Shown: positions 3,542 through 9,411 of the stretch, one piece after another
Numbering within the stretch: the stretch's first letter is position 1
How the letters are laid out: each line of letters opens with the position of its first letter
Origin: Paraspadella gotoi
Taxonomy: Eukaryota > Animalia > Chaetognatha
Assembly: GCA_051294375.1 (NCBI GenBank)
Contig: CM119264.1
Location: 16,403,245-16,467,244 of the forward strand
DNA: 64,000 nucleotides
Direction of reading: 5' to 3'
Notes under the pieces: model-generated
Told to the model about the DNA's origin: nothing
Seen by the model: only the letters and a program-made list of their open reading frames with translations
Database searches by the model: none
Program-made: the position numbers and the translations under genes

Positions 3542-6500
3542 TCAGTGAAGATCGTCGTCCTGAGGAAAGAGATGATCGTCATGACTGTCGAGACAGATCG
3601 TCGCTACCATCACCGCCGCCACTTTATAGGGATCAGCGTTCGCCGCCGGTCTCCGGTCCTCCAAGTAGCCCTTGCCTTCCATGGCGACCATCTTGGGAAT
3701 GCGGACGGAGGCTCCCCTATGGCCGACGCCCGAGAAGAAGGTGTCGTAAGCGGCCGTCAGATTTTCGCCCGTCATTCGCTTTCGATTTTCCTCTCCACCT
3801 TTAAGGGGAGTTTGGGTTGTTATTGCCGAATAGGGAGGACCTTTTGGTTTGCAGTTATACCAGGTCTACGAAAACAGATTATTTTTCTCTCCATTAAATT
3901 TAATCGAATACCACAAGGGCGCTATTTTACTTTCCTGAAACGACCCGGTCGGTTATTTTTCTATTCGCATACATGTCTTTACTTTTTCTTCCTTGTAGTT
4001 TCAAACCCCAGTAAAGTTTGGTTTTAGGTTATGGGTGGTTAAGGTTAGGTGTGGGTTAAGGGTGATTAATGGTAGTTAAGGTTAGGGGTAGTTAGGGTTA
4101 GGGGTGGTTTCTGGTAACGGTTAAGGGTGGTTGGGGTAATTAATATTCGAACAACCATTATTTTTTTCGCGGAATAAATTACGTTTGTGCTCATAAGAAG
4201 CAGAAAAAAAATTACAGACTGGGAGACATAAAATGTACAATTTTACCACTACAAGAAAAGAATTGACTAGAATCATATAAAGTAGTTTCTCAGCATAATT
4301 AAGCAGGACAAAATTTTCAACTGACACCTGTGATTATTTTTTAAAGGGAGGAGGAAGAAAAACTCATCCTGACACCGTTTTATCAAAATAGTATTATTTT
4401 CATTGGTGAATTGGTTGAGGTGATTTAAATTACTTACCATCTTTTCCTTTTCAAGCAAAAATAAAAAATTTATATATTAAGCAAATGCAATGAAAACTCG
4501 CATAGTAGAACGAGAAAAAAATATTCGAAGAAATAGTTAAAATTTATCAATAGAGAAAAATAATAGGATAATAAAAAAGGGAAAAAAATAAAAATAAACA
4601 TGAAACATCGAAATACGACAAAAAAGAGAAAGGACGAAACAGGGAAGGGGATACTCCAGTTCCAGATTTCCCCAGTAGAAAAGATAACCTCGGTTAGATA
4701 GAGTTTTAGAGTCATGATTCTGGTAGGATTAGTGTCTAGTAATAGTTAAGAATTGATTCCTTTATGATACCATTTCAGAAGTCTTCGAAGTACAGTGAAT
4801 ACCTTTCCATTTGGTATGCAAGACCGAATCAATTATAATCATTACTAGTAACCTCGGTTATCGTAGCACTTTTGATGAAACATGTGTCGCTTTGACAGTT
4901 TCTCCACGGCAGCGTCGATGGCTTCCATTCCTCCTTCTTCCCGCATTGCCTTAACAATACGTTTTTCTGGTCATCATAACCATGGCTAAAATCGACTACC
5001 GTGTTCGAAAGAAATTAAAAAGCTTTAACTTACCCTACTTTCAGTCAAATTTTAAGCATTCAATACAAAAATTAAAAAAATATCTATATTTCGCTTTTTA
5101 TTTTTAATGAGCTATCTTTAAGTGAAATATTAAAACAGGTGTAGGGAACAAAAGAAAAGAAACATATAAAAATATTCTGCTTTAAAATCTTAAGCATTAG
5201 TTTTAAAATTTATTTGATATGAAATAAATTATTAGTATCGTAAAGCTTAATTGATATTAAAAACAAATGATGTATAAATTAATTATTATAATGAAAATAA
5301 TAATTTTTTTTAAAAACAGTCTGAAAAAATGAGTAAAACATGAAAACCATAATTAGGAGAGAAAAAAGAAAAAGAAAAAAAAAAGGGAATCTTTCAAGCC
5401 ACGCCCTTCCTCTCATGAATTCATGCCTTAGTTGAGAAATTCATATGTCCTCCGCTGCCGACGAATTCCACGTCAATTCCTTTCGGCTCCGGCTTCGGAT
5501 GCCAGTTGACGACAAGACCAAAATCCTCTGCGACCCGTAACAGAATGAATCGCGACATCCACAGATGGTCGCCGATGGAGATGCCTTCGCAGGGGCCCAC
5601 CTGCGAGGAGATTATTGGGGCGACCACTTCACCATATTTTGTTGCTATTGTTAGACAAAAGGTCATGAATCAAATGCTTATCGGGTTATTGATGTACAAT
5701 TGTACACCTGGTACTCAAACTGTGCGGGAAACGCTTCTGCGACTGATCCGTAGATGTTTATCCCAGCATAGAGGCAAGCCTGTAATAAACATTCGAAAAA
5801 AGGGAGGATAATAATTATCTTATAAATTGCATTAGGCACAGTAATAAATTGAAGAACCCCTCATCGACAAAGCAATACAAAAATGTATAATGTATAAAAA
5901 AATTGTATATACTATATTTATTCTTATGTTTTGCAATTGGCCTTATTTCGTTACTCAGTATTTTCCATAAACCCTCATCAGTTTCACATTACCGCGATGC
6001 CCTTCTATTCTCACATATTGGTTCGGCTCTCCACTCCACTCCTCAGTCCCTCAGTCTCTCACTCTCACCAAATTGTGCGCTTCGACGACATTCCGAGCGA
6101 AGACGCTGTCGCCGCCGACGCCGCAATAATGTGGCAGATGGTTGTCATCGTCGGGCATTTTGTTCGCAGGCCAAGCGACCAAGCGGCCTTCGGTGTCCAG
6201 CAGCACATATTCCTTACGGTTCGAGAAGAGAAAAACAAATTTACGAACATACAAAGTTAGAAAAACGTTATCTTTGTTGTTATTGTTTTTAAAGAATGAA
6301 AAAAAGTGTTTGACCAAAACTTCTACAAGTCTATGAAATTGGTACAACCGACATAAAAATTATCAATTCATTTAATAAATAAGCTATCTTGCCCCTGAAT
6401 TTGGACAGGCTTTGGTTGTTTAAGGCCTCCATCACTCTTACAAGATTTCAATCAAGACTCCCTAACAGTCTTGTTTATAATTTTTAATTTGTAATTTCGC

Positions 6501-7158
6501 AATAATCGACCTCCAATTAAAACGTTCATTTTGGCTCATACCTGTTCTATTCCGAACCAGGGCTTCTCGTCCTCGGCCTGACTCAGGATCTCCACCGCCC
6601 TGTCGCGATAGTTCCGCGGCCTCGGGCGCCCGTTGTGCTCCCTCGCTGTGCAAAAGACGAGCTTGTGGTCTCCTCGCCGAAAAGGATCGGGGAACATCGC
6701 TACAGGAATGAGAGCAAAGTCCGAGTCGCACGGATCGGCGTGAATAGAAGTCAACCAAGCGTAGTTCCACGGAGGGACCTTAAGAGTTGTAGAAACACGT
6801 TGGTTGTTGTTGATTGTTGTGTTTGTGTGATTATTTCGATCTTATTTGTTTACAAAAGCTCGACCCTCTCTTATCTCTCCCGGTATTTGAAATACAAATA
6901 CGTGTCGGGTTAATACAGCAGTACTATTTCATCGAGTTCGTTGTATGTAGTAATTGCAATCCTTCTTACCTCCGACACGTTCTTCGGAATGAAGTCGAGC
7001 ATTTTAGTTTTGCAGCGCAGAATCCCGTAATCGTCAACAAAGACGTACATGACCATGATACGTCCCTTTGGACATTCAAGACCTCGGTATTTCGACATAG
7101 CGCTGTAGTATGCGGGGGGCATGAGGCCGGCCATGCTGCTGCTCGCGTCATCTGCCAT
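3542..7158 (-). CDS. GLUL-like: Glutamine synthetase type II-like protein A (~389 aa), divergent active site
   Basis: Exons 7158-6970, 6778-6542, 6212-6069, 5779-5708, 5600-5427, 4949-4853 and 3798-3542 join in frame; introns are GT-AG except one GC-AG. Motifs: [94 protein letters not shown]. Confidence 0.93.
4025..4140 (+). repeat. Degenerate TTAGG/TTAGGG-like G-rich tract in the last intron of GS-like gene A
   Basis: ttaggttatgggtggttaaggttaggtgtgggttaaggg...gttagggttaggggtgg. Confidence 0.6.
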
Positions 7159-8041
7159 CTTGAAGCTGGGGATTTTGGTAAAATTTGTAAAAAAATAGTA
7201 ATTATGAAAGAAAAAGCGTCAAATTTATGAGGAAAAAAATTTTAATTAACTTCTAATTTTTTTTTTATTTTAACAAAAAAAAAAAGTGCCACCAAAGCCA
7301 AGGACTTTAAAAAAAAAATAACATCAGCTTCGACAAAGTTTGAAATTAAATAAACGATGGACGGCTGCAGTAATTTCGTCGGAGCATTCGGGAAAGAGAA
7401 TACGTAGAACAACATATTTTAATTATTGTAAGATTTACCGACCTGATTTACAACCCATAAAAATGAAAACCAAAATAAAAAAAAGTTGAGGAAATACTTT
7501 TTCGCTGTTAATAAGGCTCTACTAGTCGCCCAAAAGACTAATAAATAGTAATTGATCGAGTATAATTAGATTTTCGGAGAATTATAGCCGAAACAAGGAG
7601 TTGAGAAGAACGGCCAGATATATATGCTTCCGATTTTTTCTTGCTCTCGCCTAAAATTTTTAGGCGAGTAAAAACGGAAGATTCTTGAGTACAAAGGTTA
7701 ATAATAAAATTTTTAGTGCTTTTTGACTATTAACTCGCGTAGCAACAACTAAGCTTCTCGGGTTCGAAGTTCAATTAAAATAAAACCATTTTTCACAATC
7801 TCTCTCTTGTCTGTTTGAATCTTTGATCTCTCTTTTTCAGAGCTTGCGGCAGAGCTTTTAACTGACAAACCATATCGTAATGAAAATAAAAGAAGTACGT
7901 TCTAATAACTCGATATTGTATTAAGAATAAAAAAACAATATCAGATAAGTATAAACCGATTTTATATGTAAACATGCGTTTATGCATTCGTTCTAAATCC
8001 AAGAATTTCCTCAGCCCAACCAACCCAACACCGACTTCGCT

Positions 8042-8783
8042 TCAGGCAAAAATCTCGTCGTCTTCGCTGCCCAGGCAAATGGTGGCGGTGAGGGCGGCCG
8101 CTGCCATAAAGGGCTCCACGTCCGCCGGGGGCCTTCGATCCTCCAAATAGCCCTTCCCGTCGAGCGCCACCTGGAACGGGATGCGGATGGCAGTCGAGCG
8201 ATCGCCGACGCCGTGGGCAAAAGTGTCGTAAGAGGCCGTTTGGCAAGACCCCGTCATGCGCTGAACGTTGGTGCCTGATGGAGATTTGGAGGCATGGCGA
8301 AAGAGAAAAAGATTTAAGAGAGAAAGAGAAACTTTATTCACTAAATATAAAGTCAAGTCAACTTTTCCAACTCGAGGTCGCGACCCTTTCTCACGCTTAC
8401 CTTCCCGGTCATAGCACTTCATGTGGAAGTCGTGTCGCTTCCTCAGCTTCTCGACTGCGTCGTTGATGGCGTCGATGCCGCCGTCGCTTCTCATCGTCTC
8501 AGTGGAGAAGCTCACGTGCCCGCCGCTTCCACCGAACGACGAAACCGGTTTTGGGTGTAGGGTGACAGTCACTCCAAAGTCTTCTGCGACGCGTTGGAGG
8601 ATGTAACGAGAGATCCACAGATGATCGCCGATGGAGGCGCCCTCGCACGGACCGATCTGATATTCAAACTGTGAGGGCCACGCCTCCGCACATTCGCCGA
8701 AGATTTTTACGCCCGCATTGGCGCAAGCCTGTGCCGAGAGAGAGAGAGAAGAGAGAGAGAGAGAGGAGAGAGGAGAAGAGAGA

Positions 8784-8822
<39 letters not shown>

Positions 8823-9411
8823 ACGCGCGAGGTAGGTGAGAGTAAAACGAAGTTTCATACCATTTGTTTTAAAGCTGACTCACCGCCAAATGAGCGTCAG
8901 CGAAATCCCTGAACATGACGTTGTTGATCCCCGTTCCGTGAAAATGCGGAAGTCGTTCGACTTTGTACTCTTTGGTTTTGGGCCAACTGTATACGAGGTT
9001 GTCGGGTGCGTCGCTGTCCATTACGTAGTATTCTTGTTCGACCCCGAACCAGGGTTTCTCCGCCGCCGCCATTTCCATGATCTCCAAGCATTTGGGGCGA
9101 TAGTTGTTGGGCCTGGGCACGCCCTCGTAGCTTCGGATGTCGCAGAAGAGGAGCTTGTGCGGGTCGCCGCGAAAGGGGTCACTGAAGAGAGCTCCCGGCA
9201 CCAAGGCCCAGTCCGAGTCGCGGGGAACTGCGGTGAAGTCGTCCAACCAACCCACGTTCCAGGCGGGCACGTCCGCGACCGTCTGGGGCTCTGCCTCGAA
9301 GACGCGCGTCTTGCTACGAAGTTGCAACCAATCGTCCACCCAAATGTAGGTCACGGCGCAGCGGCCTTTGTAGTCGAGATCTCGGTAGCGGGCGGCCACT
9401 GATTTGCTCAT
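8042..9411 (-). CDS. GLUL-like: Glutamine synthetase type II-like protein B (~362 aa), divergent active site
   Basis: Exons 9411-8884, 8728-8401 and 8274-8042 join in frame via GT-AG introns. Motifs: [85 protein letters not shown]. Confidence 0.93.

Follow-up and report, generated by a model that had tools for sequence, protein, structure and literature searches.

Genes at the locus

Two tandem paralogs of type II glutamine synthetase (GSII), here called genes A and B, lie on the minus strand of a 64,000-nucleotide stretch of contig CM119264.1 of the chaetognath Paraspadella gotoi (the window). Their outer limits are 3542, the end of the stop codon of A, and 9411, the ATG of B. Gene A has seven exons and an intact open frame of 389 amino acids, and gene B has three exons and an intact open frame of 362 amino acids. 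The two proteins are 53% identical and are considered here as candidate ligases of glutamate and organic amines. Five of the six introns of gene A are GT-AG and one (4950-5426) is GC-AG. Both introns of gene B are GT-AG and correspond in codon position and phase to introns 3 and 6 of gene A, which points to the tandem duplication of an intron-bearing gene. A tblastn search of the window found no other glutamine synthetase (GS) copy besides a partial, indel-laden duplicate of gene B at 1-829 (Table 1). The idea that this duplicate is a third paralog was rejected, because its indel load and the adjoining run of 25 N (830-854) make it likely to be an assembly duplicate.

Transcript evidence was taken from the contigs of a single run of one study (X1, one of three runs listed), which held 0.54 of the sampled words and is presumed to be RNA, although none of the listed runs is recorded as such. 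The joints in X1 skip exactly the six intron lengths of gene A (191, 329, 289, 107, 477, and 1054 nt) as well as an intron in its 5' untranslated region (UTR). A single 1120-nt contig spans all three exons of gene B (8055-9438) with no other letters and no gaps. The listed pieces of gene A over the codons of D63 (6760) and E305 (3760), numbered as in human GLUL, also have no other letters. The only three differences among the listed pieces, which do not include the piece over the N248 codon, are all inside intron 2. The earlier note on this DNA had described intact, spliced GSII genes and had allowed that their unusual residues might be assembly errors. The open frames and the X1 joints bear out the former, and the agreement of the listed contigs with the genome letters argues against the latter. 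Both genes are spliced, and their key substitutions are real on the evidence of this one run. It is very improbable that A and B are decaying duplicates or assembly errors. The assembly does contain indel-rich duplicated blocks and N gaps, but the frames are open over seven and three exons, the G+C content at third codon positions is 0.65 in A and 0.74 in B, the spliced contigs match the genome, and the two proteins have 25 derived sites in common.

Several further features of the transcripts were observed. The X1 contig of gene B starts with 17 letters that are absent from the window (no matches at two mismatches) and are joined directly after an AG at 9438-9440; they may come from a trans-spliced leader or from a small, distant exon. 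The main contig of gene A starts exactly at its acceptor (7165). Given the spacing of less than 1 kb between the genes, an operon-like unit of A and B is possible. Intron 2 of gene B (8275-8400) is 126 nt long, in frame, and free of stops; it is spliced in X1, and its retention would add 42 amino acids just ahead of the flap. Intron 2 of gene A has very deep contig cover at 6330-6480, together with the three differing letters, and this is either a high-copy repeat or an abundant RNA.

Table 1. Exons, landmark codons, and related features of genes A and B (positions in the window).
Feature	Position	Strand	Details
Gene B exon 1, ATG 9411	8884..9411	-	D63 to G at 9252-9250, G64 to W, S66 to D; E134, E136; Y162 to F at 8943-8941
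Gene B exon 2	8401..8728	-	PF00120; E196, E203, D239 to H, N248 to G at 8533-8531, H253
Gene B exon 3 to stop	8042..8274	-	R299, E305 to Q at 8242-8240, R319, R324, E338, R340
Gene A 5' UTR intron	7166..7497	-	GT-AG; X1 joint skipping 332 nt
Gene A exon 1, coding from ATG 7158	6970..7158	-	X1 spliced contig 6968-7165 with 0 differences
Gene A exon 2	6542..6778	-	D63 to A at 6760-6758, G64 to W at 6757-6755, E134 at 6547
Gene A exon 3	6069..6212	-	E136; rebuilt Y162 loop, Y162 itself retained at 6128
Gene A exon 4	5708..5779	-	E196, E203; X1 joints on both sides
Gene A exon 5	5427..5600	-	D239 to H, N248 to V at 5462-5460, H253; followed by the GC-AG intron (477-nt joint)
Gene A exon 6	4853..4949	-	X1 joints
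Gene A exon 7 to stop	3542..3798	-	R299, E305 to L at 3760-3758, R319, R324, E338, R340; X1 contig 3084-3800 with 0 differences
Copy of 7802-8576 (3' part of gene B)	1..829	-	90.6% identity, 66 gap openings

Origin within type II glutamine synthetases

A fragment of protein B matched the GlnII profile NF041605 best (E 1e-46, against 8e-10 for GlnA) and its score was 159.5 bits with GlnII, compared with 15.4 bits with gamma-glutamylputrescine synthetase. Matches to PDB chains reached 6e-38 for GSII and 2e-5 or weaker for type I glutamine synthetase (GSI). Animal GSII (GLUL; PDB 2QC8, 8DNU, and 7CPR) gave the best PDB and profile matches and has the same fold, length, and metal, ATP, and glutamate ligands as A and B. 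In a 41-row tree built from all columns, A and B were sisters (support 100/99) and fell inside a 37-row animal GSII fork (98/92), although this placement was weak once the pocket columns were dropped. An initial quick tree showed long-branch pull and was not relied on. As judged by profile, PDB match, and tree, A and B are members of the GSII lineage. Structure predictions were poor, with a predicted local distance difference test (pLDDT) score of 40.5 for exon 1 of B alone and 62.5 for the C-terminal part of B including the in-frame intron; the latter model matches the human GS structure.

No close homolog of A and B was found with the B exons as queries. The best matches were 47-48% identical on the B fragment (among the best 120 of 1714) and about 41% identical at best among representatives (the best 150 of 1133), and metagenome matches were 33-41% identical in eight loci. 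No telling Atlas cluster emerged. Since neither A nor a full-length protein served as a query, close kin may be missed.

Catalytic core and ammonium pocket

Residue numbers were checked on PDB mammalian chains, which align without gaps across the D63 loop, and on the same-numbered hagfish GS. The reference set comprised 112 GSII hits of at least 300 amino acids out of 122 fetched. The core set consisted of 17 metal, ATP, and glutamate residues that remained from a hamster alanine scan (PMC6601560; here and below, papers with PMC numbers are cited from the available excerpts of their text), after exclusion of the ammonium residues, N248, and K333. K333 was dropped because canonical invertebrate GS also carry G at this position.

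The earlier note had listed ten metal, ATP, and glutamate ligands as retained in both proteins (E134, E136, E196, E203, H253, R299, R319, R324, E338, and R340), and alignment to the PDB chains and the hagfish GS confirmed all of them. The replacements that it had named were also found, within a gap-free D63 loop: D63 is A in A and G in B, G64-S65 is W-L in both, E305 is L or Q, N248 is V or G, and Y162 is F in B only. S66 is likewise T in A and D in B. Beyond that list, the PQGPYY loop, N194, V197/M198, D239, W247, R298, L300, and R327 are altered in both proteins. Among the 112 reference hits, D63 is conserved in 110, E305 in 112, N248 in 110, and Y162 in 109.

The ammonium pocket of GS is formed by D63, S66, Y162, and E305 (PMC4737493, PMC7764910), and the latch of the E305 flap is formed by D239, R298, L300, H304, N248, and I309 (PMC13657631). 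Protein A retains one of the four pocket residues (Y162) and protein B none, and neither retains any of the six latch residues. The core, in contrast to the pocket, is retained at 17/17 sites in A and 16/17 in B (N255 to S), so that the earlier claim of an intact glutamate and ATP core alongside a lost pocket stands. There were 116 columns that are 95% invariant in the reference set, of which 25 are broken in A and 35 in B, and all 25 of A are also broken in B; the hits themselves break 16 such columns at most, and the median is 0.5. When only the non-core near-invariant columns are counted, 25/99 are broken in A and 34/99 in B (Fisher p about 0.02 each in comparison with the core sites, for two proteins that share a stem and are not independent). 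Breaks are concentrated in the substrate-entry loops (24/54 in A and 30/54 in B) compared with the remaining columns (1/62 and 5/62), with loops that were drawn after the data were seen, which inflates the p value of this contrast. These sequence comparisons support selective retention of the core in both proteins. The pocket-bearing loops carry new aromatic and histidine residues, namely W64, H161, F/W198, H239, and F247, as well as the acidic residues D66/D67 in B and D157/D158 in A.

These data also bear on the possibility that A and B are pseudo-enzymes, that is, proteins that form stable oligomers of the GS fold, serve a structural or regulatory purpose (as lengsin does, or as subunits modulating canonical GS), and bind ATP or glutamate without turnover. 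The loss of both pocket and latch would fit such a role, as would the long branches, the identity of only 44-52% to canonical GS (the median among 60 canonical hits is 64%), and the number of broken near-invariant columns. Selective retention of the catalytic core, the concentration of breaks in the substrate-entry loops as drawn post hoc, and the recurrence of the pattern in gastropods, a mite, and the proteins P0219 and P0235 argue against it. A pseudo-enzyme role is considered unlikely, and the sequences disfavour dead-enzyme status. Lengsin is a vertebrate lens pseudo-GS that has the GS fold, makes no glutamine, derives from GSI, and has lost its catalytic ligands. Classification of A and B as lengsin-type proteins, which we take to be defined by the loss of metal and ATP ligands, was rejected because both are GSII proteins with a retained core.

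Similar proteins in gastropods and other animals

A search with the Pomacea protein XP_025112718.1 recovered a compact clade of 58-77% identity that ranked above canonical GS (among the best 120 of 6154). Its named members are from caenogastropods and heterobranchs, including Littorina, Nucella, Babylonia, Batillaria, Aplysia, Elysia, Plakobranchus, Biomphalaria, Bulinus, Physella, Lymnaea, Bradybaena, Candidula, and Arion. Besides the Pomacea query, the clade includes Aplysia XP_012941687.1 (P0282), Littorina XP_070176482.1, Biomphalaria XP_055897206.1, and Lymnaea CAL1536719.1, and it is annotated only as glutamine synthetase or glutamine synthetase-like. A canonical GS exists alongside the clade copy in Aplysia (XP_012940732.1, P0288) and in Pomacea (P0292). 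Residues were checked in 21 of the 28 clade sequences, leaving out seven isoforms or partial sequences. All 21 are invariant at 15 of the 17 core sites, carry a replacement at G249, and have F or Y at Y336. They lack the DGS[SA] motif and have H-H at Y161-Y162 and C at E305.

Like A and B, the gastropod clade has kept the core and changed the D63 loop, the Y162 loop, N248, R298, and E305, and it has the derived states H161, A197, G251-G252, A307, and often H239 in common with them. The clade differs from A and B in that its D63 loop is shortened instead of carrying W-L, E305 is C, Y162 is H, and G249 is A, and it is only 38-44% identical to them. Within the best 120 of 6154 matches, the bivalve, limpet, and octopus rows were canonical at the four sites checked, and in one fused cuttlefish model the second copy lacks D63 and retains E305. 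Gastropods are reported to break down monoamines differently from cephalopods and bivalves, with gamma-glutamyl conjugation in place of monoamine oxidase (MAO) (PMC6454038). The distribution of the clade fits this statement, without proving anything.

A screen of D63, N248, and E305 in 150 representatives found 43 deviant sequences. Truncation, frameshifts, or misalignment affect many of these, and sequences in which the core could be read were picked by hand. Proteins lacking both D63 and E305 with a readable core were Pomacea XP_025112718.1, the mite protein Oppia XP_054166545.1, P0219, and P0235; fish proteins lacking D63 were also present. The wider set of GSII-like proteins in which the ammonium pocket or its loops have eroded consists of P0264, P0235, P0219, P0123, P0114, P0304, P0280 (second half), P0159, and P0174, and it includes proteins of the mite Oppia nitens, a mudskipper, a smelt, Drosophila willistoni, and a cuttlefish. 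The smelt protein without D63 nests within vertebrates (100/98), which indicates that the D63 loop eroded more than once. The recurrence in gastropods, a mite, and fish makes the A/B locus less rare and the link to Aplysia concrete.

The relationship between A/B and the gastropod clade depends on the columns used. In the 41-row tree of all columns, A and B joined the gastropod clade together with a long mudskipper branch (90/81, unstarred). Forcing A and B together with the gastropod clade after removal of the pocket columns cost 13 log units (AU p = 0.078), and the test did not reject this grouping. Convergence is more likely than an old shared clade, and on these trees A and B are probably convergent with the gastropod proteins rather than orthologous to them.

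Predicted reaction of A and B

Bacterial glutamyl organic amide synthetases (GoaS), which include PuuA, PauA7, GlnA3, GlnA4, AtdA1, and NpaA1, resemble A and B in having lost the D50 and E327 equivalents with the core intact, and their more hydrophobic pocket was counted as a further likeness. The D50 and E327 losses are described for PauA7, GlnA3, GlnA4, and NpaA1, all with a retained core (PMC5403932, PMC6529630, PMC11335346). The earlier note had given the loss of D50, E327, and N264 as the mark of these enzymes; the first two hold, and N264 does not, being retained in PauA7 and GlnA3. Membership of A and B in GoaS was rejected: GoaS are closer to GSI (PMC11335346), and A and B belong to GSII by profile, PDB match, and tree. 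This origin makes A and B convergent with the bacterial amine ligases, in agreement with the earlier note, and they may work like GoaS without belonging to them.

The retention of the core and the loss of the ammonium pocket suggest that A and B attach glutamate to organic amines. We estimate the probability that they are ATP-dependent gamma-glutamyl-amine ligases at roughly 0.6, judging from sequence. The predicted overall reaction is glutamate + ATP + R-NH2 -> gamma-Glu-NH-R. In the first step, the retained core would bind ATP and glutamate and form gamma-glutamyl phosphate. In the second step, the absence of D63 and E305 and the unlatched flap would widen the interface pocket that receives the nucleophile, and an organic amine would attack there. 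W64, H161, F/W198, H239, and F247, together with the acidic D66/D67 of B and D157/D158 of A, could accommodate a large, positively charged amine, for example a diamine or a biogenic monoamine. The loop differences between A and B suggest that they may use different amines. The likely role of such a reaction would be amine inactivation, storage, or detoxification.

Studies of mutated animal GS are relevant to this prediction. The hamster D63A, Y162A, and E305A mutants each have less than 5% activity (PMC6601560). In fly GS, the E311A mutant (equivalent to E305) still carries out the step with glutamate but not the one with ammonium (PMC4737493, PMC7764910).

Several points weigh against the amine ligase reading. 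A single E305A mutation in human GS causes a loss of only about 10-fold in kcat and KM (PMC13657631), and D63A and E305A hamster cell pools survived glutamine selection (PMC6601560), so residual GS activity in A and B is possible. Latch mutants of human GS mainly raise the KM for glutamate, by 5- to 100-fold (PMC13657631), and glutamate binding in A and B may be weak for this reason; B additionally loses N255. In the excerpts on the bacterial enzymes, PauA7 (N233) and GlnA3 (N260) retain the N264 equivalent and GlnA4 has E, whereas A and B have lost N248. The Y179 equivalent is replaced by a small residue in GoaS, whereas A retains Y162 and B has F, with the loop before it rebuilt. Finally, in a 35-row tree with the pocket loops removed, which left out five long or redundant divergent rows and one outgroup, A and B stood apart from the gastropod clade and beside a tick GS (90/87, unstarred), so that gastropod biochemistry transfers to A and B by analogy only.

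Two alternatives were considered. A and B may still be glutamine synthetases with low ammonium affinity that work only when ammonia is high, or whose regulation is altered. This is made conceivable by the residual activity of the single E305A or D63A mutants, by D66/D67 of B, which could replace D63, and by the GS-like protein without D63 in the mudskipper. It is nevertheless quite improbable, because the losses in the pocket (three or four of its four residues) and in the latch (all six) occur in combination, the R298A mutant by itself does not rescue glutamine auxotrophy (PMC13657631), E305 is missing in 0/112 canonical hits, and the excerpt of PMC11335346 reports no amine ligase with D50/E327 loss that uses ammonium. 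Judged by the same residues, normal glutamine synthesis by A and B is unlikely. The second alternative is a ligase with another partner, such as a hydroxylamine- or hydrazine-type compound, an amino acid, or a peptide or protein amine, or with an acid other than glutamate. N248, W247, D239, and R298 around the glutamate entry (and N255 in B) are altered, and N264 is retained in two of the three bacterial models, which would fit this alternative. The glutamate-side residues E134, G249, H253, R299, and R340 are retained in both proteins and argue against it, and its probability is considered low. The preferred reading is that A and B are gamma-glutamyl-amine ligases, and the pair probably arose independently of both the gastropod clade and the bacterial enzymes.

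Other features of the window

The blocks 27596-37279 and 37769-47198, as well as 1-829 and 7802-8576, are near-duplicates with 90-95% identity and many gaps, and they are likely false duplications from uncorrected long reads. At about 51600-55600 on the plus strand, there is a multi-exon gene with weak Ig-domain matches below the Pfam cut-offs (I-set/V-set, C2-set_2), probably a cell-surface gene of the Ig superfamily. Together with the GSII tree, these weak matches make an animal source of the sequence likely. A repeat links 12276-12547 with 60472-60736.

Gamma-glutamyl conjugation of amines in animals

Stein and Weinreich reportedly described a gamma-glutamylhistamine synthase activity of Aplysia in 1982 (EC 6.3.2.18), and we know of no sequence for this enzyme. 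A search of the open-access literature, a coverage that most older neurochemistry journals fall outside, returned no gene for EC 6.3.2.18. The Aplysia enzyme uses ATP and L-glutamate (PMC9547800), as in the reaction predicted for A and B. It is an activity from tissue, defined by activity alone, and nothing links the source of the window to Aplysia. Gamma-glutamyl conjugation of monoamines reportedly replaces MAO in the nervous tissue of Aplysia and is described as the principal way of inactivating monoamines in gastropods (PMC6454038). There are reports of gamma-glutamyl-serotonin in the venom of cone snails and in an annelid (PMC7954447), and gamma-glutamyl-monoamines are a metabolite class in snails and annelids (PMC6454038, PMC7954447).

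By its sequence pattern, the gastropod clade, including Aplysia XP_012941687.1, is a candidate for EC 6.3.2.18. It can be hypothesized that animals repeatedly turned GSII duplicates into gamma-glutamyl-monoamine synthetases, with A and B as one origin and the gastropod clade as another, and that Aplysia XP_012941687.1 is the gamma-glutamylhistamine or peptidoamine synthetase (EC 6.3.2.18) that inactivates histamine, dopamine, and serotonin instead of monoamine oxidase. This broader hypothesis is tentative, and we hold it at somewhat less than even odds.

All amine-glutamylating GS-like enzymes found in the same open-access literature are prokaryotic and close to GSI. The gamma-glutamylation chemistry is known from prokaryotes, and an animal GSII version is undescribed within that coverage. 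If the prediction is true, animal GSII would represent a convergent origin of this chemistry. With a conserved protein now named as a candidate in Aplysia, Lymnaea, and Biomphalaria, a 40-year-old question of model neurobiology becomes testable. Some of the animal proteins annotated as glutamine synthetase probably synthesize no glutamine.

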